Source of the DNA: Mogibacterium sp.
GTDB lineage: Bacteria; Bacillota; Clostridia; Peptostreptococcales; Anaerovoracaceae
Assembly: GCA_017403955.1 (NCBI GenBank)
Contig: JAFRDH010000025.1
Coordinates: forward strand, 71,294 to 135,293
Direction: 5' to 3'
DNA: 64,000 nt
Positions 2,206-64,000 of this stretch are shown piece after piece. How positions within the stretch are numbered: the stretch's first letter is position 1; every line of letters starts with the position of its first letter. The notes beneath the pieces are model-generated. The model saw only the letters and a list, made by a program, of their open reading frames with translations, did no database searches and was not told where the DNA came from. The position numbers and the translations under genes were made by a program.

Positions 2206-3363
2206 ATGAAAATCTATAGTTTTGGGAGTCTTGAAAACGGCAGAAAGGCCGGTTTATATATCCTGAAAAATTCAAACGGGATGTCAGCGGAGGTCACGGA
2301 TTATGGCGCTGCGCTGGTAAGATTGATCGTGCCTGATAAAGACGGCACGAAAAGGGACGTTGTTCTCGGTTATGACGATGTTGCCGGTTATGAGAAAGGA
2401 CACGGCTCGCTCGGCGCTACAGTCGGACGTGTTGCCAACAGAATAGGCAATGCATCATTCAGGCTAAACGGCAAAGAATACAAACTGACTGCTAATAACG
2501 GAACGAACTGCCTGCACGGCGGAAGAGATCCATACAACAAGAGGATGTGGGATGCCGCTATCCCATTCGGGAAAATCAGCTCTGGAAGCGTTGCAGCTAA
2601 AGTCAATGCAGTCGAAAGTATGAACGACGGGCTGCCTGCTTACGTGCAAAGTGATCTGAACGGAGACAGTATCAAGTTTTGCCTCGACAGTCCTGACGGA
2701 GATCAGGGATTCCCGGGAAATCTGCACATCGAAGTGACCTATACCCTGACCAACAACAACGAATTGCACATAGAATATAGAGCTGTCAGTGATGCCGATA
2801 CTGCGCTCAATCTGACGAATCACAGCTATTTCAATCTGAACGGACATAACAGCAAGTCGGTTCTTGATCATGTATGCTCGATAAAGGCGGACTGCTTCAC
2901 TCCAAGCGATGAGATCCTGCTTCCTACAGGCGATCTGCAGAGCGTTCTGGAGACACCGATGGATTTCCGCATCGGCAAGGAGTTCTCCAAGGATATGGAT
3001 GTACAATACAATCAGCTCAGATTCGCAGGAGGATACGATCATAACTATGCGATCGACGGCTGGGATGAACCGGCAGGCGAAGGAGAAAAAGGTTTCTGTA
3101 AGTATCGTGAAGCAGCGGTCCTGAAGTCCGAAGAGAGCGGGATCAAAATGACGGTACTGACTGACCTTCCGGGAATGCAGCTTTATACATCAAATGGCCT
3201 GAACAATGAGAAAGGTAAAGGCGGCGTTGTTTACATGAAACAATGCGCTGCGTGCTTCGAGACACAGTTCTGGCCGGATTCGATCAACAAGGAAAACTTC
3301 CCGGGCGGCGTGCTCAAAGCAGGCGAAGAATTCTACTCAAAAACAACATACCGCTTCGAATAG
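2206..3363 (+). CDS. galM: Aldose 1-epimerase (galactose mutarotase)
   Basis: Mutarotase motifs are present: NCLHGG, LTNHSYFNLNG and ETQFWPDSINK. I place the start at ATG 2206, preceded by GGAGGG, rather than at the track start 2113, which lies inside the upstream gene. Confidence 0.85.
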   Translation: MKIYSFGSLENGRKAGLYILKNSNGMSAEVTDYGAALVRLIVPDKDGTKRDVVLGYDDVAGYEKGHGSLGATVGRVANRIGNASFRLNGKEYKLTANNGTNCLHGGRDPYNKRMWDAAIPFGKISSGSVAAKVNAVESMNDGLPAYVQSDLNGDSIKFCLDSPDGDQGFPGNLHIEVTYTLTNNNELHIEYRAVSDADTALNLTNHSYFNLNGHNSKSVLDHVCSIKADCFTPSDEILLPTGDLQSVLETPMDFRIGKEFSKDMDVQYNQLRFAGGYDHNYAIDGWDEPAGEGEKGFCKYREAAVLKSEESGIKMTVLTDLPGMQLYTSNGLNNEKGKGGVVYMKQCAACFETQFWPDSINKENFPGGVLKAGEEFYSKTTYRFE

Positions 3364-3885
3364 GAGACCGGGGACGGTTCTCTGTCTCCTTCACGCGATC
3401 TCCAGAGCAAAAGTTATCGGGAAGCATATGATCCGGGAAATATCATAATAGAGCCTTAAAAGGGTTACTTTTTTAACCCCAAAGGCTCTATTTTGCATTT
3501 CGAGGGGTTATCAGTATTTTGGCAAAGCTAGTCTTTTGTATATTCATTCGCTCCTATAAATAATTAATCATCATAATTAGTCCTGACTGATAGATCAATT
3601 CCGCTTTTGCTTGTTCATATGCATTTCTTTGGCTTCCAGGCATAAAAATGAGTCTCTCAGCACGGCGATAGATAAACGACTGGCTTTTCACATACATGAT
3701 ATGTTCAATGAGCGATAACCCCATTAAAACGAAAAAAGAGAAAAAGGATTATTTATTTGACCCAAAACTGTCTAATTGTAAGGATAAAGGTTATTTATAA
3801 TTATTCACGTCTCAAAACCTTATAGCAAAATTCAACTACAATTGTTTCTCAAAAGTGTGTCAATGAGAACCGTCCCCGGTCTCCT
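3362..3885. repeat. Perfect 21-bp inverted repeats (3362-3382 and 3865-3885) bounding a 482-bp AT-rich segment
   Basis: AGGAGACCGGGGACGGTTCTC at 3362-3382 has its exact reverse complement GAGAACCGTCCCCGGTCTCCT at 3865-3885. The bases just outside both ends mismatch. The left arm overlaps the galM stop codon (3361-3363). Confidence 0.9.
3448..3495 (+). terminator. Rho-independent terminator of galM (inside the IR-bounded segment)
   Basis: ATAGAGCCTT-AAAA-GGGTTA-CTTTTT-TAACCC-CA-AAGGCTCTAT forms a nested hairpin followed by TTTTG. Confidence 0.65.
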
Positions 3886-51381: not shown

Positions 51382-51518
51382 ATTCTCCTCACACTAAAGC
51401 TGTTGGATTATTATAGCATGAATTGTAATCAGTAGTCATATATGGTAGAATAATCTCCGATTTCGGATTTTGCCGGGATCGTTATCAGCGAAGCACAATT
51501 AGAAGGACTGATCTACTC

Positions 51519-52625
51519 ATGAACGAGAATAAAGAGAAGAATTATACAATCGAACAGAACAAACAGGTAATGACCGAACATCACGACAATGATGGATTCG
51601 GTGAAGACCTGGGCAGATCATATACAAGAGTATCAGACAATCTCCGCAGGAACAGACGCAAATATGCGATCATCTCTGTAGCGGCAGCTGTCCTGATCGC
51701 GATCGGCGGGGTTTCGGCCGCAGCAGTCGCCAATGTAGCTCCATATGCTATTTCAATCAATGGCAAGCAGGTCTGCACAGTCAGCGGCAAGAACGAGGCG
51801 GAAGTCGTCGTCAAGGGCCTCGTAGCAGATTACGTTCCTGAAGGTTCGGTCGTCAAAGCGATTTCTACAGATGACATGATCAAGGTAGAGCCTGCGGAGT
51901 CCGCATCCGAGGCACGCGACAATGCTGTAGGAGTCGATGAAGCCATCGAGAACCTGAAGGACGCTATTTCGGAGTCTAAGGATGATGCCAAAGCTGAGAT
52001 CACTGTCGTCAGCACCGGAATGGAAGTCGAGAAATTCACACCTAAGACGAAATACATCAAAGACGATACGATGCTTGCAGGTGAAGCAGTAGTTGAAGTC
52101 GAGGCTAAGAAGGGCAGCAAAGAAGTCACCAAGAGATATACAACAGTCAACGGCGAAGTGACCGGTGAGGAAGTCCTCAAAGAGACGGTCATCAAGAAGG
52201 GCAAAGCCGCCAAAATCAGAAAGGGTACTCTCGGACTCCCTGAAGGCGAGGACTGGAAGACATACGAAGGAGATCCGATTTACCAGAATGGTGAGGAACT
52301 GACTCAGACAGCTCTCAACTATCTCGGCGCACCGTATAAGTACGGCGGACACAGCCTTGTAAACGGTATCGACTGCGTACAGTTCATCAGACAGATGTAC
52401 GCGAAGTACGGCATCAGCCTTCCTAACGGAAAGAATGCTCTCAAGCATGTAGGCTTTGCAGTCAATTACAAGGATATGCGCCCTGGCGATATCATCTGTT
52501 ACTCCAACCATTACGCGCTTTATATCGGCAACGGCAAGATCGTCCACGCCATCCGTAAGGGTGTAAGCGTAGGTAACAATCCTAAATACAGAGGCATCGT
52601 TACTATCAGGAGAGTCGTAGGATAG
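51519..52625 (+). CDS. Membrane-anchored G5-domain NlpC/P60 peptidoglycan hydrolase
   Basis: TM: AIISVAAAVLIAIGGVSAAAV. G5-like: TKYIKDDTMLAGEAVVEVEAKKGSKEVTKRYTTVNGEVTGEEVLKETVIKKG. NlpC/P60: GAPYKYGGHSLVNGIDCVQFIRQMY ... GDIICYSNHYALYIGNGKIVHA. Confidence 0.8.
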   Translation: MNENKEKNYTIEQNKQVMTEHHDNDGFGEDLGRSYTRVSDNLRRNRRKYAIISVAAAVLIAIGGVSAAAVANVAPYAISINGKQVCTVSGKNEAEVVVKGLVADYVPEGSVVKAISTDDMIKVEPAESASEARDNAVGVDEAIENLKDAISESKDDAKAEITVVSTGMEVEKFTPKTKYIKDDTMLAGEAVVEVEAKKGSKEVTKRYTTVNGEVTGEEVLKETVIKKGKAAKIRKGTLGLPEGEDWKTYEGDPIYQNGEELTQTALNYLGAPYKYGGHSLVNGIDCVQFIRQMYAKYGISLPNGKNALKHVGFAVNYKDMRPGDIICYSNHYALYIGNGKIVHAIRKGVSVGNNPKYRGIVTIRRVVG

Positions 52626-52656
52626 CAGGCCGAGACCGGGAGGGCCGGACCAACCA

Positions 52657-53526
52657 ATGACCAGGAAAAAAGAAACAACGCTGATCACAGTGATCCTTTC
52701 CATATGCCTTATAGCGGCAATTGCCGGAGTGATCAGGTCGTCCGGAAATAAAGAAGAAGCTCCTGAAACAGATCCGTCAGACGATAAATCAGAAGCAGAA
52801 GTCACAATAGTACTTCCTGATTCATCAAGAGGCGATACAGCGGATGCTGAAGTCACCAATCTCAAAGGAGATACATACAACTTCAGAATATTCGATCAGA
52901 GAGCAGGATATGAGAATTATTCAGAATATTTGAGCGCGCATGGTTGTTCGACCTGCGCGCTTACCACTATATTGAGAACGACTGCAGAAGGGCTTGAAGA
53001 CCTGACCCCGGACCGGACTTTGACAGAGATCATCTACCCGGTCATCGGAGATGACGTCTTCAGCAAGAACTTCAGCAAGTCCAAGAAGAGACAGATGCCG
53101 ATCACCCTCGGCGGTATGACTCTTATTTTTGATAAATACGGAGTCGAATACAAGAAGCCGTCAACTGATCCGGATAAGAGAGCCGGAGAGGTGAAGAAAT
53201 GGCTCAGGAAAGGAAACCCTGTCATTCTTACTTTCGGCAACGGCAAGTCGGCTCATCTCAGCAGATATACACATACGGTACTGCTCCTTGGCATTGATGA
53301 CAATGGCAAAGTCATTATCGGGGATTCACTCCACAAGAGCGCATCTTATTGGGGCAAAGACGGCCTGATCAAATCAGGCAAGCTCACAGTAGAAGAAATG
53401 CTGTCTTTCATCAAGAAGGAAGACGGCTGGACTTTGAATCAGGACATGGTCCCTCAGGACCGCATTTTCTATAAAAATTCAGCAGACAGAGGATATTTAT
53501 TGATCAGGAAGGCCGGTAACAACTGA
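52657..53526 (+). CDS. Membrane-anchored protein with putative papain-like (peptidase C39-like) domain
   Basis: N-terminal TM: LITVILSICLIAAIAG. Candidate Cys/His pair: HGCSTCALTTIL ... YTHTVLLLGIDDNGKVIIGDS. The family assignment is by pattern only. Confidence 0.45.
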   Translation: MTRKKETTLITVILSICLIAAIAGVIRSSGNKEEAPETDPSDDKSEAEVTIVLPDSSRGDTADAEVTNLKGDTYNFRIFDQRAGYENYSEYLSAHGCSTCALTTILRTTAEGLEDLTPDRTLTEIIYPVIGDDVFSKNFSKSKKRQMPITLGGMTLIFDKYGVEYKKPSTDPDKRAGEVKKWLRKGNPVILTFGNGKSAHLSRYTHTVLLLGIDDNGKVIIGDSLHKSASYWGKDGLIKSGKLTVEEMLSFIKKEDGWTLNQDMVPQDRIFYKNSADRGYLLIRKAGNN

Positions 53527-53527
53527 C

Positions 53528-54490
53528 ATGGTTTCAACAACACTTTATACATCGATCAACAACAGAAAAGTCGCGATCATCGGAGCCGGATTCGTAGGTT
53601 CATCTATCGCCTACGCGCTCACCATCAGGAATCTCGCCAATGAGATCATCCTTATAGATGTCAATGAGACAAGAGCACGCGGTGAGGCGATGGACATACA
53701 GCACGGGATCCCTTACATGGGAACTTCTTCGGTACGTGCAGGCAACTATTCCGACTGCAGGAACTGCGACCTGATCATCATCACAGCAGGAAGACCGAGA
53801 AGACCGGGAGAGACAAGACTTGACATGATCGCTGATAATATCGGGATCATGAAGAACGTAGTAGATCAGATCAAACCATATTACACACACAGCGTTATAA
53901 TGGTAGTATCCAACCCGGTAGATATCATGACACACATGATCGACAAATGGATGGGACTTCCTAACGGCGTCGTATTCGGAACCGGATGCATTCTTGACAC
54001 ATCAAGACTTGTCAGATGTATCGCCGATTATACCAACCTCAACACAGAGTCGATCAAGTGCAATATCGTCGGAGAGCACGGAGACACACAGTTCCCGGTA
54101 TGGAGCAGACTTGCTATCGCCGGCCTGACAATGGATGAATATTGCCAGAACGTCGGACTCGAGTGGAATGACGAGCGCAAAGAACTTCTCCATGAAGAAG
54201 TCAGGAACATGGGCGCCAGCATAATCGGTGCAAAAGGAAGAACGCATTACGGTATCGCTACTTGCGTTTGCTCGCTCGCAGATGCTGTTCTCAGCCAGAG
54301 ACCGACTATCGCACCTGTTACTTCACCTCTTCAGGGAGAGTATGGTATCAAGGGCGTTTCGATCAGTATTCCTTCGATCGTCAGCGTAAGAGGAGTCGAG
54401 CACAGACTTCAGGAGAACTGGGCACCTGAAGAGATCGCAATGCTCCACACCAGTGCGGAAAGGCTGAGCGACAAGCTCGCAGCTCTCTAA
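53528..54490 (+). CDS. ldh: L-lactate dehydrogenase
   Basis: KVAIIGAGFVGSS, IILIDVNETRARGEAMD, GCILDTSRL (substrate Arg) and GEHGDTQFPVWS (catalytic His). Confidence 0.9.
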   Translation: MVSTTLYTSINNRKVAIIGAGFVGSSIAYALTIRNLANEIILIDVNETRARGEAMDIQHGIPYMGTSSVRAGNYSDCRNCDLIIITAGRPRRPGETRLDMIADNIGIMKNVVDQIKPYYTHSVIMVVSNPVDIMTHMIDKWMGLPNGVVFGTGCILDTSRLVRCIADYTNLNTESIKCNIVGEHGDTQFPVWSRLAIAGLTMDEYCQNVGLEWNDERKELLHEEVRNMGASIIGAKGRTHYGIATCVCSLADAVLSQRPTIAPVTSPLQGEYGIKGVSISIPSIVSVRGVEHRLQENWAPEEIAMLHTSAERLSDKLAAL

Positions 54491-54506
54491 TCAACAATCG
54501 TTATTT

Positions 54507-55886
54507 TTGGATCATTCTACGGTTTGCAGGGAAATGGCAGTAAGATCAACAACAACGGAAATACTTGAATGGATCAGAGAGAGGAACAATAAACTCTCAG
54601 TCAATATCGAAAGAACATCCCTCGATAAATGTGAGGGCTGGTTATATGATGAAGAATCGGGTTTGGTGCGTCATAAAAATGGCGCATTTTTCTCTATTGG
54701 AGGACTTTCCGGGACCTTCAGAGGTTCTTATGTAGAGCAGCCGATCTGTTATCAGAAGGAGATCGGCTATCTCGGATATCTGTGCAGTGTGATAGATGGT
54801 GAAATGCATTTCCTGACGCAGGCCAAAATGGAACCGGGAAATATCAGCCTGATGCAGCTTTCGCCGACCATTCAGGCAACCAAAAGCAATTTCGAGCAGA
54901 AACACGGCGGCAGGAAGCCGGTTTATCTGGATATTTTCAAGAATGTAGCGGACGATGATGTCATCGTAGACCAGATACAGTCCGAGCAATCCTCGAGATT
55001 CATGGGCAAGAGGAACTGCAATATCATCATCAGAACGGATGATCCTGACAGCATAGAACTCACGGAAAATCACCGCTGGGTCAGCCTGAGGCAGATGAGG
55101 GAACTCAGCAAGTATGACAATCTCGTCAATATGAGCAGCCGTACGGTGCTCGCGGGAATACCGTTCAGCACGATGAGGCAGGACTACTGGGTCGATGAGA
55201 TCAGAGACGAAGCACTCAGGAACTCTATTTTCAAAGAGCCTGACCATCAGCTGCTCAAGGATATACGTCACCGCATCGTTCAGTACAAGATGTTCAATGA
55301 CGATGATGTCCGCGAAGTTCCGCTGATGAGTCTCGCCGGATGGGAACTTACCGAAGACGGCTTCAGCTGCAAAGAGGACTATCCGTTCAGACTGAATTTC
55401 TGCAGGATCGCGATCGAGGGCAGAGAAGTCCGTGAGTGGTGCCAGCCACTCTTCGAAGCGACGGGAAGAGCCTTCTTCGGATTGTTTGCGAGAGATCATG
55501 AAGGAAAGAGGGAATGGCTCCTCAGACTCAAGCCGGAAATAGGCTGTTTCGACAAAGTAGAGCTCGGTCCGACGGTCCAGAGAGAAGCTTTCAGCCGCAT
55601 CCCTGAGAATGACATAGATAAACTGTTCATTCGCAAACTTGAGGAAGCAAAATCATCGGGAGATAAGGATGGCCGGATCATGTTCGATACGCTTCTCGCT
55701 GAGGAAGGCGGAAGGTTCTACCATGAAGAGAACCGCAATGTGATCCTGAAGATCGAGGATGATGAGATCGATGAACTGCCGAATGACTACTTCTGGTGTG
55801 ACTACGCAACGATCCAGGCAATGAACAGTGACAACAATCACCTGAACATCCAGCTCAGAAGCCTGATGTCAGTAATAAATCTGTAG
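54507..55886 (+). CDS. NDP-hexose 2,3-dehydratase (EvaA/TylX3/OleV family)
   Basis: HKNGAFFSIGG ... LTQAKMEPGNISLMQLSPTIQATKSNFEQKHGGRKPVYLDIF, and a second pseudo-repeat half ending in GGRFYHEENRN. The start is either TTG 54507 (track) or ATG 54534. Confidence 0.85.
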   Translation: MDHSTVCREMAVRSTTTEILEWIRERNNKLSVNIERTSLDKCEGWLYDEESGLVRHKNGAFFSIGGLSGTFRGSYVEQPICYQKEIGYLGYLCSVIDGEMHFLTQAKMEPGNISLMQLSPTIQATKSNFEQKHGGRKPVYLDIFKNVADDDVIVDQIQSEQSSRFMGKRNCNIIIRTDDPDSIELTENHRWVSLRQMRELSKYDNLVNMSSRTVLAGIPFSTMRQDYWVDEIRDEALRNSIFKEPDHQLLKDIRHRIVQYKMFNDDDVREVPLMSLAGWELTEDGFSCKEDYPFRLNFCRIAIEGREVREWCQPLFEATGRAFFGLFARDHEGKREWLLRLKPEIGCFDKVELGPTVQREAFSRIPENDIDKLFIRKLEEAKSSGDKDGRIMFDTLLAEEGGRFYHEENRNVILKIEDDEIDELPNDYFWCDYATIQAMNSDNNHLNIQLRSLMSVINL

Positions 55887-55901
55887 GATAAGCGAGGAAT
55901 T

Positions 55902-56900
55902 ATGGACAAGATACGTATCGGAGTAATGGGACCTGCTGAGATCGCATTCAGGAGGACAGTCCCTGCACTTATCGCAAGTGAATCAACAGAATACGCAGGT
56001 ATCTCGCATGCTAGTCTCGAGGAATGGCCGGGGCAGTCCGCAGGTCACGCTGCAAAGTGTGACAAATTCGTCGAGACTTACGGAGGCAGGATATACGATA
56101 GCTTTACTGAAATGCTCGATGATGAGAGTATAGATGCCGTATATATCCCGCTTCCTCCGGGCGCTCATCTCAAGTGGGCGACTTTGGCGCTCAACAAGGG
56201 CAAGCACGTGCTCGTCGAGAAGCCGTCAACAACTTCTCTCGAAGACACTCAGGCACTCGTAAGCCTCGCGAAGGAAAAAGGCCTTGCTTTGCACGAGAAC
56301 TACGCTTACGCATTCCACAGACAGATCCGCGCCCTGCAGGAACTCCTCAAAAGCGGCAGGATCGGAGATCTCCGAATGGTCAGAAGTTCGTTCAGCTTCC
56401 CTTACAGAGGCGAGCAGGACTTCAGATACCATGCCGATAAAGGCGGCGGAGCGATCATCGACTGCGGAGGATACCCTGTGAATCTCGTTTGCAGATTCCT
56501 TGGCGGGAACATCCGTGTCACGGATTCATTCATGGGCTCGACTCGCGAACATGATGTCGACACCTACGGGGCAGCGACACTGAGAGGCGACAACGGCGTG
56601 ATCGCACAGATATCCTGGGGAACGGATAATACTTACAGATGCAACATAGAACTTCACGGAAGCACCGGACTTGCATCGGCTGACAGAGTATTCTCACCGC
56701 CTCCTACCATGAACCCGGTCATTACGGTAAGAGACAACTCCGGGACAGAAGAGATTTTTGCGGGTTCAGAAGACCAGTTCAGAAGCTCCGCGGAATACTT
56801 CTGCAAGTGCATATCCGATCCGGAGAAGAGGGAGACAAGATATGCCGAGATCCTGAAACAGGCCGAACTGATCCAGTCGATCATTGACAGCAACAAATAG
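55902..56900 (+). CDS. Gfo/Idh/MocA-family oxidoreductase (NDP-hexose C-3 ketoreductase candidate, OleW/KijD10-like)
   Basis: IRIGVMGPAEIAFRR and the EKP motif VLVEKPSTTS. The function is inferred from its position directly after the 2,3-dehydratase. Confidence 0.65.
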   Translation: MDKIRIGVMGPAEIAFRRTVPALIASESTEYAGISHASLEEWPGQSAGHAAKCDKFVETYGGRIYDSFTEMLDDESIDAVYIPLPPGAHLKWATLALNKGKHVLVEKPSTTSLEDTQALVSLAKEKGLALHENYAYAFHRQIRALQELLKSGRIGDLRMVRSSFSFPYRGEQDFRYHADKGGGAIIDCGGYPVNLVCRFLGGNIRVTDSFMGSTREHDVDTYGAATLRGDNGVIAQISWGTDNTYRCNIELHGSTGLASADRVFSPPPTMNPVITVRDNSGTEEIFAGSEDQFRSSAEYFCKCISDPEKRETRYAEILKQAELIQSIIDSNK

Positions 56901-56911
56901 ATTGTGCACAG

Positions 56912-56941
56912 AAAAAACGACCCCGTCACCGGGGTCGTTTT
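56912..56941. terminator. Bidirectional rho-independent terminator
   Basis: AAAAA-ACGACCCCG-TCAC-CGGGGTCGT-TTT, located between convergent genes. Confidence 0.8.
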
Positions 56942-56967
56942 AGCGTCATATTCGGTTCAGCCGGGAA

Positions 56968-58287
56968 TTAATCATACATTGTGATGATGATTGCGGTCTT
57001 GTTAACGTGTGTATGCTTGTACATGAACGATGCACCACCGTTAGTCATTCTGATGCAGCCATATGTTCCAGGCTTTCCTGCCTTGGAAACGACTACTCTT
57101 GTCTTGCCGCTTTCCCACCATGTTCCTGTGTGGAATGATACGCTGCCCTTCTTGCCGATCTTGGTTCCTACATAGGATACTGTTGTGAAGTAATAACGCT
57201 TACCATTTTCCTGTACCATCCATACTTTGCCAGGTACTTTCTTGGTGATCGTGAACTTTGTATATCCGGCGTTATCTGTGGAACGCGTAGGCTGGCTGTA
57301 TTTTCCTGAAGTTATACGGTCGGTATGATAAAGTGACCACTTGCCATCATCCCACTTGAATGTGTAAGCTCTCTGTGTGTGGAGGCAAACCCATACAAGA
57401 GTATTGTCCTTTGACTTTGCAATAGGAGTAGCTTTTTTGCCAGGACCCTTTTTGTTATAGGTCTCATTGACAAACTGTTCTTTGAGTGAGCGAGTGTAGT
57501 CTTTCTTGACTATTGTACTGGCCTTGACGCCGCCCTTAAGGTCTTTCCACTTGATCCAGCCTGTGACTTTCTTGCCTTTGACTGTGTAAGTGACCTTTAC
57601 TCTTTCAGCATAGTGGTATTTCTTGACGACTGCAGGATATCTTCCGATAGCACTCATCTTGGTACCCTTTTTGACCTTGGTCAGCTTAGCAGAGCCGGAA
57701 CCCTTCTTGTATATAACAGCGGTTCTCTTTGCCTTGCAATACCAGTTGATTCCGGATGTTGCAGTAATAACGCCGGAAACAGTTGCGTACTTAGCAGAGG
57801 ACTCGACGGAGTTTGCAATGGTCTTGCCATCTTCCTTGTACTGAATAGCTCTTACTGAGTAGTAATAAGTGCCGCTAGGTACGAGGACGAAGAAAGAGTA
57901 GCTGCCGCCTGCGTTAACAGTCTTCACAACTGCCTTTGCAGCAGAGCCCTTCTTCCAGCGGAGAACCTGATATGCATCTACGCCTGTAGCATTTGCATGT
58001 GACCACTTCAGAGTATAGCCGTTGTCCTTAGCGCCTTCGAAGTCATCCTTGTCGTATTTCTTCTTGAAGGCGGTGATGACCGGAGCAGTCGTTGTGAACG
58101 GTTCTACGGCTTCACCTTCGCTGACTGTACCCAGAGTAGCTGAATCTGCATCAGCCTCAGGCACCACATCGGTTACGATCGTGCTGTCGCCGGACATTGT
58201 CTCTTCGCCTTCAGCAAATACAGCAGCTGTTGAGAATACCATCATCAAGGCAAGCAGAATTGATAAATAACGTGCATGTCTCTTCAT
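56968..58287 (-). CDS. Secreted modular protein: FN3-like, SH3-like and C-terminal L,D-transpeptidase-like (YkuD) domain
   Basis: Signal peptide: MKRHARYLSILLALMMVFSTAAVFA. FN3-like: YTLKWSHANATGVDAYQVLRWKK..YYYSVRAIQY. C-terminal: SFHTGTWW...GTYGCIRMTN, resembling the YkuD H..(S/G)xGCxR motif. Confidence 0.65.
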   Translation of the reverse strand: MKRHARYLSILLALMMVFSTAAVFAEGEETMSGDSTIVTDVVPEADADSATLGTVSEGEAVEPFTTTAPVITAFKKKYDKDDFEGAKDNGYTLKWSHANATGVDAYQVLRWKKGSAAKAVVKTVNAGGSYSFFVLVPSGTYYYSVRAIQYKEDGKTIANSVESSAKYATVSGVITATSGINWYCKAKRTAVIYKKGSGSAKLTKVKKGTKMSAIGRYPAVVKKYHYAERVKVTYTVKGKKVTGWIKWKDLKGGVKASTIVKKDYTRSLKEQFVNETYNKKGPGKKATPIAKSKDNTLVWVCLHTQRAYTFKWDDGKWSLYHTDRITSGKYSQPTRSTDNAGYTKFTITKKVPGKVWMVQENGKRYYFTTVSYVGTKIGKKGSVSFHTGTWWESGKTRVVVSKAGKPGTYGCIRMTNGGASFMYKHTHVNKTAIIITMYD

Positions 58288-58428
58288 AATATAAATCTCC
58301 TAATGTATTTAAAAAGTATAACTAATTAACAATTCCCCGATTTTATCGCATAAATCGATACATTATTCTACATTATTATTTGTTAAGAATCTCTAAAGAT
58401 TAATAAATGTTAAGATACTGTAAAGTTA

Positions 58429-58437
58429 TGATATAAT
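58429..58437 (+). promoter_or_regulatory. Extended -10 promoter element candidate
   Basis: TGATATAAT, 35 nt upstream of ATG 58473, in a very AT-rich divergent intergenic region. Confidence 0.35.
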
Positions 58438-58472
58438 ACGAGAAAATTGATAACAAACTGATAGGAGATACT

Positions 58473-59762
58473 ATGTTTGAAAAATACCAGAAGAAGTTCG
58501 TGAATCTTCAGATTTTCCTGGATCTGCCTAAGATGAAGCTGAGCCTTCCGCAGGATTATTCCAAGCTGGTGAAGATACAGAACAGAAGGATCCGCTCGCT
58601 GATGAAGGCAGCATACAAGGTCCCGTTCTATAAGGAAAGATTCGATAAAGCAGGTGTGAAGCCGGGCGACATCAAGTGTGCCGAAGATCTTGCCAAGCTG
58701 CCGCTTCTTACGAAAGAAGAGCTGCGCGCCTGGATGAAAGAAGAAGCCAAGAACCCTAAATACGAAGACTGGTTCCACGATACTACAAGTGGTTCATCCG
58801 GAGAGCCTCTCATGCTCCTCATGTCACCTCGTGAGAAAGCATATCTGATGGCAAACTGGTTCCGCGTTCTGCTCGCTGCAGGCTACAATCCGTTCCTCGG
58901 TAAGACGATGAGCCGCAAAAGTGCGCACAGCGTGACCGGCGGCAAGGACACGATCTTCCAGAAGGTCGGCATCCTGAGAAGGGACTTCCTCGACCAGTAC
59001 GCGCCTGAGGAGGAGATGATCCGCCAGGTCAACGAGTACAAGCCGGATTTCCTCTACATGAACAAGACCGAGCTCATGCGTATGTGCATGTATGCCAGCA
59101 AGAATAACGTCAAAGTCTGGCAGCCAAAGTTCTTCTGCCCGACCGGCGAGAAAATCGATGACGCAGCAAGAGCTGTTTTCTTCGAAGTACTCGGTCCGAA
59201 CATGATCGATTCCTACGGAACAGCCGAGGCCGGCGCCTGCATGGTCAAGCTCCCGGGCTGGAACGACCACAAAGTGTGGCATGACTCTTTTGTCGTAAAT
59301 ATCTATGACGATGACGGCAATCTGGCCGACGAAGGCAAGATCGTTGTCACTCCGCTCTTCAAGAAAGACCTGCCACTCATCAATTATATAGTAGGCGATA
59401 AAGTCGCATCAGAAGTGAGAGACGGTGAGAGATTCATCACTGGTGTCCAGGGCCGTATGAATGACGCGTTCAAATATGAGACCGGAGAAGTCACTACTTT
59501 CTTCGAGATCGCTCCGATCATCGCCCACTGCGAGGACGTTATCCAGATAAGATTCATCCAGGAAGATTATCATCATGTAACAGTCCAGGCAGTCCACAAC
59601 GCGAAAGAATCCACCAAATCTATAGAAGAAGTTGAAGCAGAACTCCGCAAACAGCTCACTGCCAAGTTCAAGCACCCGTTTGAACTCACCTTCGAGTGGA
59701 AAGAGAACCTGCCGCCTGATGATAACGGCAAACTCAGAATGATCGTCTGCAAAGTCAAATAA
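58473..59762 (+). CDS. Phenylacetate-CoA ligase-like adenylate-forming enzyme (PaaK/CapK/F390-synthetase family)
   Basis: 429 aa. Motifs: HDTTSGSSGEPLMLL (AMP-binding core), SYGTAEAG and C-terminal GKLRMIV. Confidence 0.7.
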   Translation: MFEKYQKKFVNLQIFLDLPKMKLSLPQDYSKLVKIQNRRIRSLMKAAYKVPFYKERFDKAGVKPGDIKCAEDLAKLPLLTKEELRAWMKEEAKNPKYEDWFHDTTSGSSGEPLMLLMSPREKAYLMANWFRVLLAAGYNPFLGKTMSRKSAHSVTGGKDTIFQKVGILRRDFLDQYAPEEEMIRQVNEYKPDFLYMNKTELMRMCMYASKNNVKVWQPKFFCPTGEKIDDAARAVFFEVLGPNMIDSYGTAEAGACMVKLPGWNDHKVWHDSFVVNIYDDDGNLADEGKIVVTPLFKKDLPLINYIVGDKVASEVRDGERFITGVQGRMNDAFKYETGEVTTFFEIAPIIAHCEDVIQIRFIQEDYHHVTVQAVHNAKESTKSIEEVEAELRKQLTAKFKHPFELTFEWKENLPPDDNGKLRMIVCKVK

Positions 59763-59854
59763 CCGGAGGACGATCCGGAAAATAAAGCAAACAAAGAAGG
59801 CGCAGCTTGCGTAATGCAGCAGACGCCTTTTTCATTGCGAGCTTGGATCTTGCG

Positions 59855-60880
59855 CTATTCTTTATGATTTGTGCCGTTGCTGTTCGAAGCATTCTTTTGC
59901 GAGGAAGGAAACCTTGCTGCCCGAAGAGCCACACCTACGATACGGCGGATGCGGCGATTAGGGATCGCGTCTTTGGCTATTTCAAGGGCGTCAAGAGCGA
60001 CATCTTTGACAACAGGATTTTTAGCCAGCTTTTTCACCTCGCGCCTGACCTTAGGCGCATTTTTTCTGACGATCTCTGAGCTCTTATCCAGAACATTCCG
60101 GCCATTGCTCTCGCGCTTTTCTTTATTATCATGTCTGGCCTTATTTTTATGAGCCTTGTCATTGTCAGATGCCTTGGCAGCCTGCTTGTCTTCTTTAGAA
60201 TCTTTCGCCTTCTTTTTATCGCTGCGGTCTTCGATCAGCTCCTCTATACACAATCCCAGGGCAAACGTTGCCTGTTCTGCAGACATCGAAGGCGGGCACG
60301 CAGGGACCTCTCCGGCTTCAAAGAGTGCCTGTGCCTGCTCAGGGAGATATGGTATGTGTATGAATCCGCCTGCCACCTTCTTGTACTTGCGTCTGATGAG
60401 GTGGAGTAGGGTGTACATCACACTATTACATACAAAAGCACCTGCTGTGTAAGAGACTTCCGCAGGGATCATATTCGCTGCAAGGCGGTTCTGCATTTTC
60501 CTGATCGGCAGACCGGTAAAAAATCCATCGGGTCCTCCCGGGATGACAGGTTCATCGCACGGCTTGTTGCCTTCATTGTCAGGGATGCGGGCATCCATTA
60601 TATTTACGGCGACTCGTTCAAGCCTGATGCCGGGACTTCCGCCTGCCTGGCCTGTGCAGATCACAGCATCAGGGGCATGCTCTTTGACAGCGCCCTCAAG
60701 TACTGCACCGGCTTTGCCGAACACTGTCGGGAGCTCAAGCTTGATGATCTTCCACCCCAGTATTTCATCGGGAAGAGCGCTCACTGCAGCCCATGAAGAA
60801 TTGATGGAATCTGAGTCGAACGGGTCAAAACCCGTAATCAGGATCTTATGTTCTGTATTATTAGCCATGTTGTTCTCCAT
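59855..60880 (-). CDS. pcp: Pyroglutamyl-peptidase I fused to a ~125-aa Lys/Arg-rich C-terminal extension
   Basis: KILITGFDPFDSDSINSSW, GIRLERVAVNI (Glu), AGAFVCNSVMY (Cys) and GGFIHIPYLPEQ (His). The tail begins at DRSDKKKAKDSKEDKQAAKASDNDKAHKNKARHDNKEKRE. Confidence 0.8.
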   Translation of the reverse strand: MENNMANNTEHKILITGFDPFDSDSINSSWAAVSALPDEILGWKIIKLELPTVFGKAGAVLEGAVKEHAPDAVICTGQAGGSPGIRLERVAVNIMDARIPDNEGNKPCDEPVIPGGPDGFFTGLPIRKMQNRLAANMIPAEVSYTAGAFVCNSVMYTLLHLIRRKYKKVAGGFIHIPYLPEQAQALFEAGEVPACPPSMSAEQATFALGLCIEELIEDRSDKKKAKDSKEDKQAAKASDNDKAHKNKARHDNKEKRESNGRNVLDKSSEIVRKNAPKVRREVKKLAKNPVVKDVALDALEIAKDAIPNRRIRRIVGVALRAARFPSSQKNASNSNGTNHKE

Positions 60881-61010
60881 TCAACCGGAACTCTCAGTCC
60901 TTTTCTTCACAAATTTTAGCATTGCGAATGAATATCGGTCAATGTGGCATATCTTGTTCAAAACATGATATTATATATGCAAATGTCACAGAACAAGTCA
61001 AGGAGGAATT

Positions 61011-64000
61011 ATGAGCAATATAAACATAAGTGATAGTTTCCTCAAGATTCTTGAGAACAATCAATCATCAGATGAACCGAAACGTCCGAGCTTCTTTGAT
61101 ACTCCATCAGAACCGGAAATAAAATCGCCGTTCGATACCCTTAAGACCAACGATAATTACCCACCGGATCCAAATGCTTCCAGGAAAATCAGGAGTGAAT
61201 TCCTGGCGAGTGAATCCGGATACGATAAATACGGCCGGATCCTCGACAGTTTTGTATGGGAAGATGAAGAAGCAGCAGATATGCTTGCAAAAATCCCGGA
61301 GCGTTTCTTCGTGATGGTCGATGAAATGTCAGAAAAATGCAGATTCAGAGTTGAATTTGAAGAGGACGATAAGAAATATTTTGTCAGGATCTCAGCTCCG
61401 GATGTTGTCTGCGGCGGAGAGTCCCTTGTCGATACCAGAAATGAACTTCGCAAGAAATCCGTTGAGAACAGCGGTCTGGTCAAAACGATCGTTGTTGACC
61501 CGGACAATCCGCGCTCGACCGGACTTGCCGGCAGCATGTGTCCGGGTAGAAGGGATCCTGATGAAAAGGGAAAGAATTGCCAGTATTATATATGCCCTGT
61601 AGATGTTGCTGTATATGTATCATATCTCAAGGCATACGGCCTTACAGACAGTCTCCGCATGAGCAGAGTGAAGTATATGGAGAATAAGGACAAGGTCGAT
61701 CTGGATACCAACAATCCATGGTATTTCCTCAATGTGCCGGCGGATCTGATCTTCAATCCTTTCGGCCGCGGATACTTTATTCCGGAAGACAAGATGATCA
61801 AAGCCAGAAAGATGCTCGATGAGGGTCTCTTTTCATCAGTCGTCACGCTGGATGAAAAGGAACGCCCGATGATCATGGCTTGTTATGACGGAACATACAG
61901 ACGTATGGAAGTCACAGACTTCGGCAAGCGCAATAATACGGAGCCTTTTGCAGATCTCTTCCTTGAGAGAAGACCTGCTGAGACAAAGTCGAAGAGACAG
62001 AGTGCTCTTGAGAAGAATGTTGCTGATGCAAAACTGTCATCTGCACACGACTTCAGACAGTTCTCGCCATGCCCATACTGCGACAACGAATTCTGCGAGA
62101 TCAAATACGCTTCTTTCGCAGACATGCTGATCCAGAGCGGCAACTATGCTTCATATATTGAGAAGTCCAGAAAGAACAAACAGAGACATGACAAAGAATA
62201 CGCGCAGTTTACAGAAGAGATCCCAAGACTTGCCGAGATCAAGGACGCAATATCCGTGCAGAACAGCTTCTTCGGCTGCGTGACAGGTAATTCCGAGAAT
62301 TTTGTCAGGAAAATCGCTTCGCTGATCGCAGAAGAGATCACATACAGACCGGGAGTTTCTCCTAACGTGGCACGCATGACCATGATGGAAATGATGACCG
62401 AGCTCAGGAGTAACACTTACTATAAGAAGATCACCGACTTCACAACAGAGATGTGGGGCAAACCTGCTAATAATCAGATCTACATCCTGAACGGCGTAGA
62501 TGAATTCATCAAATTCATCGCAAACCCTCAGCAGAAAGAAGCCGGCATGAACCTTATTGACCACCTGATCCATGTAAGGGACAATAAGTACTTCATCCTG
62601 ACGGGCACCAAGTATGACCTCGACTGCCTCTTCAATGAGTTTGTCGGGATCTCCAACGTATTCTCGCTCGGAAGCGTCGACCTCAAGGATATGACCGCAG
62701 TCGAGATCTATGATGCTTTCACAAATATGCTGACTGACAACCTGAAAGCAGCCATAACAGAGGAATTCAGGAATAAAGCGATCGACTATATCTCGCTGAA
62801 TCAGGGTGTGCTGCCGTATAACAACATGGAAATGGCAGTTTATCTTTCTGCTTATGTCAACCAGAAGGGCCTCCAGCTCCCGAAGATGCATAATGTTGAC
62901 GTCGAAAAGATGCTCAGCGAGATCATCGGAATGGACGACATCAAGCAGAAACTCAAAGATTTCGAAGCGTATACCAAGTACCAGAAGATGGTCAAAGGTC
63001 ACGGCGCGAAGGTCCCGAGTGCCAATACTCACATGGTATTCCTCGGCAATCCGGGTACCGGTAAAACTACGATCGCCCGTATAGTCGCTCAGATGATGTT
63101 CAACATCGGACTCCTGCGCAAGAACACAGTGATCGAAGTCCAGCGTAAAGACCTGATCGGAGAATATGTAGGCCATACAGCCATAAAGACGCAGGAAGTC
63201 ATTGATAAAGCAATGGGCGGCGTGCTCTTCATCGACGAAGCATACGCACTTACCGCATCAGGATCATCAAATGACTTTGGCGGAGAATGCGTTGCGACAC
63301 TCATCAAGGCGATGGAAGACCACAAAGACGACCTGATCGTGATTTTCGCAGGTTACGTAGATGAGATGAGAATGTTCCTTGCATCGAACCCGGGTCTTGA
63401 GTCAAGAGTAGGATATGTATTCAGATTTGAAGATTACGAAGTCGATGATCTCGTCAAGATCTTCAACGTCAAGATGACATCGAACGGTTACCGGTTAGAG
63501 GACGGCGTAGAAGAAAAGGTCGGAGAACTCTGCAGATACTTCAGCGGGAAACGCGACTTCGGTAACGGAAGATTTGTTGACAAAGTTATTCAGCAGACTC
63601 TCGTAAGACATGCTCAGAATGCTGATGAGAATAATCTGATCACGATCAAGCCTGAAGACATTCCTGAGATCGAAGATGTTCAGAAGACATCCGCCGGCGG
63701 ATGGGAAATGGTAAATCCGAAGGATATCACTAAGGAAGAGCTCATGACTATCGCAGTACATGAACTCGGACACGCTATCGCCGGATATTATCTCGCAGGC
63801 AACATGGAGATCGAGAAGATCTCGGTACAGGCAGATGCATCGGGCACACTCGGATTTGTCAAATACGACCTCAAGAAGAAAGCTCTCGAGTCCGAGAAAG
63901 ACCTGATCAACCAGCTGGCAGTTACACTCTCCGGCAAGAATGCAGAGGAAGTCGTCTTCCAGTCGCATACTTCAGGATGCAGCAATGACATCCAGAAAGC
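61011..64000 (+). CDS. Large soluble protein (3'-truncated by window edge): ~640-aa unknown N-terminal region + SpoVK/CbbX-type AAA+ ATPase + FtsH-like M41 metallopeptidase domain
   Basis: This ORF is not in the ORF track because it has no stop within the window. RBS AGGAGG (61001-61006) precedes ATG 61011, and the frame stays open for 996 codons. Walker A: GNPGTGKTT (63045-). Walker B: GGVLFIDEAYAL. SpoVK-type: DDLIVIFAGY and GNGRFV. M41 motifs: TIAVHELGHAI (HEXXH at 63759-63773) and TSGCSNDIQK. No hydrophobic TM segment was seen. Confidence 0.8.
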   Translation, partial: MSNINISDSFLKILENNQSSDEPKRPSFFDTPSEPEIKSPFDTLKTNDNYPPDPNASRKIRSEFLASESGYDKYGRILDSFVWEDEEAADMLAKIPERFFVMVDEMSEKCRFRVEFEEDDKKYFVRISAPDVVCGGESLVDTRNELRKKSVENSGLVKTIVVDPDNPRSTGLAGSMCPGRRDPDEKGKNCQYYICPVDVAVYVSYLKAYGLTDSLRMSRVKYMENKDKVDLDTNNPWYFLNVPADLIFNPFGRGYFIPEDKMIKARKMLDEGLFSSVVTLDEKERPMIMACYDGTYRRMEVTDFGKRNNTEPFADLFLERRPAETKSKRQSALEKNVADAKLSSAHDFRQFSPCPYCDNEFCEIKYASFADMLIQSGNYASYIEKSRKNKQRHDKEYAQFTEEIPRLAEIKDAISVQNSFFGCVTGNSENFVRKIASLIAEEITYRPGVSPNVARMTMMEMMTELRSNTYYKKITDFTTEMWGKPANNQIYILNGVDEFIKFIANPQQKEAGMNLIDHLIHVRDNKYFILTGTKYDLDCLFNEFVGISNVFSLGSVDLKDMTAVEIYDAFTNMLTDNLKAAITEEFRNKAIDYISLNQGVLPYNNMEMAVYLSAYVNQKGLQLPKMHNVDVEKMLSEIIGMDDIKQKLKDFEAYTKYQKMVKGHGAKVPSANTHMVFLGNPGTGKTTIARIVAQMMFNIGLLRKNTVIEVQRKDLIGEYVGHTAIKTQEVIDKAMGGVLFIDEAYALTASGSSNDFGGECVATLIKAMEDHKDDLIVIFAGYVDEMRMFLASNPGLESRVGYVFRFEDYEVDDLVKIFNVKMTSNGYRLEDGVEEKVGELCRYFSGKRDFGNGRFVDKVIQQTLVRHAQNADENNLITIKPEDIPEIEDVQKTSAGGWEMVNPKDITKEELMTIAVHELGHAIAGYYLAGNMEIEKISVQADASGTLGFVKYDLKKKALESEKDLINQLAVTLSGKNAEEVVFQSHTSGCSNDIQK

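Follow-up and report, generated by a model that had tools for sequence, protein, structure and literature searches.

A Mogibacterium gene predicted to join a SpoVK-type AAA domain and an FtsH-like M41 peptidase in one soluble chain

The energy-dependent proteases of bacteria are commonly presented as a short, fixed list, in which M41 counts as the membrane-anchored member. Canonical FtsH pairs a classic-clade AAA domain with M41 and is anchored in the membrane by two N-terminal transmembrane (TM) helices. Here we describe a gene at the edge of a 64,000-nucleotide stretch of DNA (hereafter the window; contig JAFRDH010000025.1, positions 71,294 to 135,293) from Mogibacterium sp. (Clostridia, Peptostreptococcales, Anaerovoracaceae), which probably encodes a zinc metalloprotease that is soluble, ATP-dependent and self-contained and whose predicted ATPase is of the SpoVK/CbbX/EccA type. 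When the SpoVK-EccA clade was surveyed in 2024, no association with peptidases was reported (PMC11513918), and the combination of a SpoVK-type AAA domain with M41 therefore looks undescribed. A full-text literature search returned no paper on such a fusion, although journals outside that search may hold one.

Direct translation of the plus strand revealed a frame that remains open for 996 codons, with zero stops, from an ATG at 61011 to the window end at 64000, preceded by a Shine-Dalgarno sequence (AGGAGG, 61001..61006) located 4 nt 5′ of the ATG. The original prediction, made from the letters of the window, had recognized this frame and its ribosome-binding site and had observed that the list of open reading frames (ORFs) lacks it. 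The list indeed holds solely antisense or off-frame ORFs at 61011-64000, for example 62151..63176 on the minus strand, because the tool leaves out frames that are still open where the source sequence ends. We obtained the sequence beyond position 64000, as had been proposed, and found that the gene extends 207 nt outside the window, stop codon included (complete gene L001:10001-13195). The translated portion (coding sequence 61011..64000, plus strand) is 100% identical across all 996 residues to P0001, a protein of 1064 aa (NCBI MBQ3292653.1, "MAG: AAA family ATPase [Mogibacterium sp.]"), so that just 68 residues lie outside the window. Every motif quoted in the prediction was found at its place in the translation: GNPGTGKTT (679-687), VLFIDEAYAL (738-747), LIVIFAGY (775-782) and GNGRFV (851-856) in the AAA part, TIAVHELGHAI (913-923) and SGCSNDIQK (988-996) in the M41 part, and the cysteine motifs MCPG..NCQYYICP (176-196) and CPYCDNEFC (354-362) in the N-terminal part. 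No TM helix was detected in six complete homologues, whose top Kyte-Doolittle 19-residue means of 1.06-1.28 are far under TM level. This agrees with the earlier reading of the 996 residues and extends it to the missing 68 C-terminal residues, where the prediction had left room for TM segments and where the same analysis found none. Neither the window fragment nor the full protein gave a Pfam match to FtsH_ext. The central proposal of the prediction, a TM-less fusion of a SpoVK/CbbX-type AAA domain to M41 behind a large N-terminal region, holds and generalizes to a wider family.

Pfam, NCBIfam, PDB comparisons and motif conservation identify residues 630-890 (62898..63680, plus strand) as an active-looking AAA domain of the SpoVK/CbbX/EccA type with an AAA_lid_6. 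This portion of the plus strand encodes a Walker A motif GNPGTGKT (63045-63068), a pore loop Y719-V-G (63165-63173) and the Walker B residues D742/E743 (63234-63239), as well as GY at 781-782, N793...R799 and the sensor-2 arginine R854 (in GNGRF). Pfam searches with the window fragment returned AAA over residues 675-782 (6.1e-19) and AAA_lid_6 over residues 832-884 (7.5e-08), the latter reaching 32.7 bits on the full protein compared to a cut-off of 24.3. NCBIfam returned SpoVK (1.9e-75), CbbX (2.2e-64) and EccA (3.8e-64), and the best solved structure was that of CbbX (3zuh, 5.5e-49), in agreement with the assignment first made for residues ~650-880. The ATPase is nevertheless not SpoVK, CbbX or EccA, since it missed all three equivalog cut-offs (253.3 vs 422.95 bits for SpoVK TIGR02881, 217.5 vs 459.25 bits for CbbX TIGR02880 and 217.2 vs 466.65 bits for EccA TIGR03922). 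The features of the SpoVK-EccA clade are present, namely the GY sensor-1 (G781-Y782 in IFAGY), the sensor-2 R854 and AAA_lid_6. Judged by these motifs, the ATPase belongs with the SpoVK-EccA clade, of which it displays the Asn/Arg-finger feature in part. It had been proposed to come from a different AAA+ clade than that of FtsH; the SpoVK type was correct, but the distance was overstated, as both fall within the Classical AAA assemblage.

The AAA domain is followed by an M41 peptidase domain of 174 residues (891-1064), of which the first 106 (residues 891-996, 63681..64000, plus strand) are encoded in the window and residues 997-1064 outside it, as delimited by Pfam and by alignment to FtsH. 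The full protein matches Peptidase_M41 (PF01434) with 95.1 bits compared to a cut-off of 29.9, while the window fragment scores 63.3 bits (3.5e-17) over residues 906-996, corresponding to positions 3-93 of the 191 in the profile, the match being cut by the window edge. Comparison with solved FtsH protease domains gave 3.7e-16 and covered HExxH and the aspartate of xND(I/L), and for the C-terminal helices there is a weak alignment with the last part of the protease domain of Aquifex FtsH. On the plus strand, the zinc site HELGH (residues 917-921) is encoded at 63759-63773, the key glutamate Glu979 at 63945-63947 and Asp993, within SGCSNDI, at 63987-63989. By alignment to the FtsH motif and from FtsH crystal structures, we take Asp993 to be the third zinc ligand. 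TIAVHELGHAI and SGCSNDIQK had been read in the original prediction as the FtsH M41 zinc site, and the profile score and the alignment bear this out; the possibilities that the region is not M41 or that it lacks the third ligand can be set aside, as Asp993 is present and invariant.

Immediately upstream of the live AAA domain, residues 395-629 (62193..62897, plus strand) form a degenerate AAA domain of SpoVK/CbbX type (hereafter pseudo-AAA), recognized by profile-profile comparison and by profile matches in the PDB. It is devoid of Walker A, Walker B, pore loop and sensor-2 arginine. A six-sequence profile of residues 395-629, when compared with the AAA domain by hhalign, fell short of significance (P = 0.067). 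The homology became clear through the use of a deeper profile of 24 sequences, which aligned to 114 AAA domains over 210 colinear columns (probability 98%, E = 2.4e-13) and matched CbbX (3.3e-06) and EccA1 (0.022) in the PDB. The predicted secondary structure is a five-strand alternating beta/alpha core followed by a helix bundle. What had been raised as a possible second AAA-like region, degenerate in sequence, is confirmed by these comparisons.

Word-indexed homologue searches with the whole fragment or with residues 1-630 recovered the same six proteins only. These full-length homologues are 52-70% identical and all keep the full architecture. They form six clusters at 90% identity and collapse into a single cluster at 50% identity, in a set of 1.84 billion representatives. 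Scans for DFRQFSPC and PYCDN[ESD]FC found no close relative in 185,579 GTDB species representatives or in JGI metagenome contigs. A word-indexed search with the 24-sequence pseudo-AAA alignment yielded 2177 candidates but none with E ≤ 1e-5, though several of the aligned sequences are in the database; a negative outcome of this type of search is unreliable when the alignment is divergent. By contrast, residues 1-629 used as a profile in an exhaustive search retrieved 84 proteins at E ≤ 1e-3, nearly all of them through the pseudo-AAA domain. These 84 proteins were scanned with hidden Markov models (HMMs) derived from segments of the six-protein alignment, and two were also examined in Pfam. The pseudo-AAA domain is carried by 80 distant clusters, and in 45 of the 80 representatives it is preceded by a variable N-region and followed by one to three SpoVK-type AAA domains and a C-terminal M41, so that the set with this layout counts at least 45 clusters at 50% identity. 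Many of the other 35 stop within a few residues of an AAA domain and may be truncated by contig ends, while P0010 and P0015 seem to be genuinely M41-less. Named members of this superfamily are annotated merely as "AAA family ATPase" (Mogibacterium sp.; Eubacteriales bacterium) or "AAA+ superfamily predicted ATPase", and the record names suggest an origin in rumen or gut metagenome assembly sets. The Mogibacterium protein is a member of a wider family, apparently of gut and rumen Clostridia.

The catalytic residues of both domains are conserved throughout the superfamily. Of 114 AAA domains, 114 retain the Walker A lysine, 112 the Walker B DE, 91 the pore-loop tyrosine and 107 its glycine; the G and Y of GY are kept in 113 and 112, the asparagine equivalent to N793 in 112, R799 in 112 and the sensor-2 arginine in 111. 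HExGH, Glu979 and Asp993 are each found in 43/43 superfamily M41 domains, and are invariant even though divergence reaches ~20% identity.

Preceding the two AAA domains are 394 residues of a different kind. Residues 1-55 (61011..61175, plus strand) form a poorly conserved tail that is probably disordered, with a predicted local distance difference test (pLDDT) of ~30 and no conserved column before Y74. Module 1 of the N-domain (residues 56-235, 61176..61715, plus strand) is delimited by AlphaFold2 (AF2), invariant cysteines and a motif HMM, and consists of an alpha/beta unit with a CxxxxCP-helix-hairpin motif (188-231). When folded with nine sequences, it reached a pLDDT of 85-94 across most of its length, and C134, C177, C190 and C195 are invariant in these 9 sequences, distant homologues included. 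It ends in the motif C-x-[YF]-x-x-C-P-helix...YLK.xG...RkxYxENKdxvDL, which many distant superfamily relatives also carry in their N-termini, frequently in two copies; a motif HMM built from distant relatives alone matches residues 188-231 at 6e-14. A weak, degenerate second copy lies at 354-393 and keeps its register across the six proteins (E = 3e-4 to 0.17). Module 1 also has a stand-alone homologue, P0052. Module 2 (residues 236-394, 61716..62192, plus strand) is marked by the invariant block DFRQFSPCPYCDNxFCE in the six-protein alignment; AF2 confidence is low over residues 296-361, and an HMM scan of the distant relatives found no match outside the six-protein family. Residues 1-629 had zero matches in Pfam, PHROGs and PADLOC. 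The AlphaFold and Foldseek check that had been suggested for the N-terminal region returned no credible fold for the N-domain, the best E values being 0.27 in PDB and 0.07 in BFVD (model pLDDT 73; predicted template modelling score, pTM, 0.77). The earlier statement that the first ~640 residues belong to no recognized family is upheld for some 340 of them (56-394), and gives way for 395-629, which are the degenerate AAA domain. Across the superfamily the N-domains are variable and modular.

By its motifs, the gene specifies, in FtsH order and within one soluble chain, an intact nucleotide-binding and hydrolysis site, a pore loop of translocating type and an intact M41 zinc site. If it behaves as FtsH, CbbX and other Classical AAA hexamers do, the protein would assemble into a stacked hexameric ring, in which a crown of Cys-rich N-domains would pick the substrate. 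The catalytically dead AAA tier (395-629) would serve as a structural or assembly ring. In the live tier (630-890), the Tyr-Val-Gly pore loops would grip the substrate, and ATP would drive its unfolding and threading into a chamber formed by the C-terminal M41 domains, where the HELGH/Asp993 zinc site would cut the chain. Such a machine would require no membrane anchor. Its activity is where we are most uncertain: it could degrade substrates processively or merely clip or remodel a specific client.

Several points count against this model. The arginine that comes first in the RSR of CbbX (NPGFRSR), 4 positions past N793, is a glutamate (E797) in the Mogibacterium protein. R799, the arginine kept in 112/114 AAA domains, lies six positions past N793. 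At this position the superfamily has A/S/E/Q/K in 98/114 AAA domains (Ala 53, Ser 14, Glu 13, Gln 10, Lys 8) and Arg in 6/114, that is, a residue other than arginine in 108/114, so that ATP hydrolysis between subunits may differ from that of SpoVK/CbbX or be weak. The M41 domain is without ~37 residues that FtsH has between its active-site helices and its C-terminal helices. Full-length AF2 modelling with six sequences gave a mean pLDDT of 52 and a pTM of 0.29, too poor for ring geometry. Pseudo-proteases with an M41 domain have a precedent in the plant FtsHi proteins, and the Mogibacterium protein could likewise be a remodelling chaperone akin to SpoVK/CbbX/EccA that degrades nothing and in which M41 is merely an oligomerization platform or a pseudo-protease. 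All characterized members of the SpoVK-EccA clade are non-degradative, acting as narrow-client remodelling chaperones and not as unfoldases feeding a protease (PMC11513918), and both the missing arginine and the seemingly M41-less members such as P0010 and P0015 fit this explanation. However, we consider it very unlikely, as the strict retention of HExGH, Glu979 and Asp993 at ~20% identity is hard to explain without selected catalysis and the Tyr-hydrophobic-Gly pore loop is conserved as well.

The sequence is known from metagenome-assembled data alone and its close family is very rare (one 50%-identity cluster, no match among GTDB representatives or JGI contigs), as might be expected of an assembly chimera or a decaying pseudogene. 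This explanation is effectively refuted. The identical 1064-aa product was called on 15 contigs that we read, including four loci, L001-L004, from four different samples, and the ORF is intact on many contigs, which disposes of the concern that resequencing might reveal a stop codon or a frameshift. Furthermore, five homologues at 52-68% identity keep the architecture, the domain order recurs in 45 distant clusters, and the ratio of nonsynonymous to synonymous divergence (dN/dS, Nei-Gojobori) is low: 0.12 overall for P0005/P0006, with a synonymous divergence (dS) of 0.58, and 0.06-0.12 for pairs involving P0001, whose synonymous sites are saturated. By region, dN/dS was 0.27 in N-domain module 1, 0.07 in module 2, 0.08 in the pseudo-AAA and 0.06 in the AAA domain; in the M41 stretch P0005 and P0006 are nearly identical and the ratio is uninformative. 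The low values in the N-domain and the pseudo-AAA indicate that the unassigned and dead domains are kept by selection. The M41-coding 3′ ends of the P0005 gene (L006:~3100-3671) and the P0006 gene (L008:~2790-3361) differ by a dS of 0.009, while the rest of the two genes has a dS of 0.6-1.4, which suggests that recent recombination brought in the 3′ end, possibly together with downstream DNA. Downstream of the L006 gene lies a gene for an N6_Mtase/Eco57I methylase, and downstream of the L008 gene a 188-aa ORF.

The upstream neighbour in the window, at 59855-60880 on the minus strand and thus divergent, encodes a pyroglutamyl peptidase (Peptidase_C15, 1.5e-65 over residues 12-216), which has ~125 extra C-terminal residues without a Pfam match. 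Downstream, on the same strand as the protease gene, lie genes for Metallophos, a Ser/Thr kinase (443 aa), VWA, PP2C and transglutaminase-like proteins (L001:13344-18078, also in L002-L004). The trio of kinase, VWA and PP2C may resemble signalling modules of the 'TerY-P triad' type. That these genes and the protease gene form one operon devoted to signalling or proteolysis would accord with the five same-strand genes in L001-L004 and with the recurrence of four of them, all but Metallophos, next to a 68%-identical relative (L005:3583-7451). We find this highly improbable. A 15-bp hairpin (10 GC) followed by TTTTTATT begins 27 nt 3′ of the stop codon (L001:13222-13255), forming a strong terminator; the whole neighbourhood of L005 is simply syntenic, up to ATP-grasp, GT2 and polysaccharide genes further on; and the kinase/VWA/PP2C/transglutaminase set is absent from nine further loci (L006, L007, L008, L010, L012, L013, L014, L015 and L016). 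The expectation that partners lie just beyond the window was therefore not borne out, given the terminator and the confinement of the downstream genes to the syntenic relative.

The nine other loci all have different neighbours, including restriction-modification methylases, a CAP/Big_2 protein, CotH, an oxidoreductase, small unknown ORFs, HNH, SUKH immunity genes and polysaccharide genes, and no conserved neighbour was found across the ten different contexts examined. All-against-all BLASTP of the neighbours from several loci returned a single recurrent item, an ORF of ~150 aa directly upstream of the P0005 and P0004 genes (L006:3-452 and L007:1-441; 44% identical, motifs GRPTGV and VPESYRPFY). 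The same domain is fused to the N-terminus of P0068, P0070, P0037 and P0082 (hmmsearch 2e-12 to 2e-06). Being separate in two loci and fused in four members, it is an N-terminal accessory that members of the superfamily may have or lack; the window does not contain it. No full-length relative was found on 72,556 plasmids or in 50,697 phage records. With no obligatory neighbour and no full-length plasmid or phage relative, the gene looks stand-alone and chromosomal. An origin in a mobile element was considered and rejected, as there was no full-length plasmid or phage match and the GC content of the gene is that of its flanks.

At two unrelated loci the protease gene is surrounded by envelope and polysaccharide genes, coding for epimerases, UDP-glucose dehydrogenase, Bac_transf, GT2, Polysacc_synt and CapK: the P0019 locus (L016:1-4704) and the window itself (~51500-60000, continued at L001:18090-23195). 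This may be coincidence, although members of the SpoVK-EccA clade have been speculated to act on envelope-synthesis enzymes (PMC11513918). Upstream of the gene of P0068, a three-tier member, are two adjacent SMI1_KNR4/SUKH genes and a run of small unknown ORFs (L015:4050-4887). SMI1_KNR4/SUKH proteins are presumably immunity proteins of polymorphic toxin systems, and their presence hints that some superfamily members reside in conflict-system islands.

A role in conflict could extend to the Mogibacterium protein, as the ATPase and protease module of an anti-phage or inter-bacterial system of IetAS-like logic that infection would activate. We consider such a role unlikely. Weak matches to PADLOC IetA (2.4e-10) and NCBIfam IteA (1.9e-08) cover the generic AAA core only, with 33.9 bits compared to a cut-off of 510, and no gene for an IetS-type protease is adjacent at the Mogibacterium locus. 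While some relatives adjoin restriction-modification methylases (L006), an HNH gene (L014) or the SUKH/SMI1_KNR4 immunity genes (L015), no neighbour recurs across loci, and the genes that surround it in the window, L010 and L016 are of the housekeeping or cell-envelope kind. The variable, modular N-domains would suit a conflict component, whereas the unremarkable GC content and the lack of full-length relatives on the plasmids and phages searched argue against one.

If it acts as we propose, a cytosolic M41 protease with SpoVK-type motors, up to three in tandem plus a dead one in its relatives, would add a new branch to the recognized set of energy-dependent proteases. The superfamily also extends the literature on the SpoVK-EccA clade, for which the 2024 survey had reported no peptidase links, and gives a concrete means to test the relationship between FtsH and the SpoVK, CbbX and EccA chaperones. 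Because a soluble FtsH-like enzyme made of one chain is free of the membrane anchor, the enzymology and structure of M41 could be easier to address. The hosts of the family are probably anaerobic gut and rumen Clostridia, which are otherwise poorly studied. More tentatively, and with the odds in our view against it, the superfamily could be a distinct, unrecognized class of soluble bacterial ATP-dependent protease beside Lon, ClpXP/AP, HslUV and FtsH, which could preserve an ancestral protease-linked state from which the SpoVK/CbbX/EccA chaperones arose by loss of M41, its Cys-rich N-domains being a new substrate-selection module.

Partial resemblances were found in phage and plasmid records. 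Proteins of the PA5oct group of jumbo Pseudomonas phages match the AAA and M41 domains over ~433 residues (query residues 622-1063, ~25% identity, E ~1e-11) and, unlike the Mogibacterium protein, have no pseudo-AAA or Cys-rich N-domain in the matched region. The corresponding records (H13-H24, e.g. MK797984.1:175586-176884 of Pseudomonas phage PA5oct) are annotated as FtsH, cell division protein or hypothetical; should these ~433 residues make up the entire protein, they would leave no room for an FtsH membrane anchor. In Streptomyces plasmid records (H1-H3, H9-H11), tblastn aligned residues 478-888, which are the back half of the pseudo-AAA and the live AAA, to 'right-handed parallel beta-helix repeat-containing proteins', and these matches fit an architecture of beta-helix and EccA-like AAA that has been noted before (PMC11513918).

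Set against the AAA proteases (MEROPS M41; FtsH, YME1, AFG3L2), the Mogibacterium protein has the same order of AAA, lid and C-terminal M41 zinc peptidase, and shares with FtsH the HExxH, the conserved glutamate, the aspartate third ligand, the aromatic-hydrophobic-Gly pore loop and membership of the Classical AAA assemblage. It differs from FtsH by having neither TM helices nor FtsH_ext, by an AAA domain of the SpoVK/CbbX/EccA type with AAA_lid_6 (76.5 vs 600 bits for TIGR01241 and 31.5 vs 1008 for PRK10733, the NCBIfam FtsH model matching essentially through the M41 part only), by ~630 extra N-terminal residues that include a dead AAA, by an M41 domain ~37 residues shorter, and by relatives with two or three live AAA domains in tandem. 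Since it has no membrane anchor and missed the equivalog score, the enzyme is not FtsH. With the SpoVK/CbbX/EccA chaperones it shares the GY sensor-1, the conserved asparagine, the sensor-2 arginine and AAA_lid_6 (profile matches of 1e-64 to 1e-75), as well as variable N-terminal domains that presumably recruit substrates; it departs from them in the fusion to a peptidase and in the degenerate AAA ahead of the live one, and from SpoVK/CbbX in the first arginine of NPG(F/L)RSR, here a glutamate and mostly alanine across the superfamily. Tandem-ring AAA+ machines with one inactive tier are also known, e.g. NSF D2, but are not fused to a protease and belong to different AAA families. As in machines of the NSF D2 type, a motif-less AAA stands beside a live AAA in one chain, suggesting a structural and an active ring, provided that a ring is formed. 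Taken by its predicted domains, the architecture combines known parts in a new way; it is of the AAA+ M41 protease type and not categorically new.

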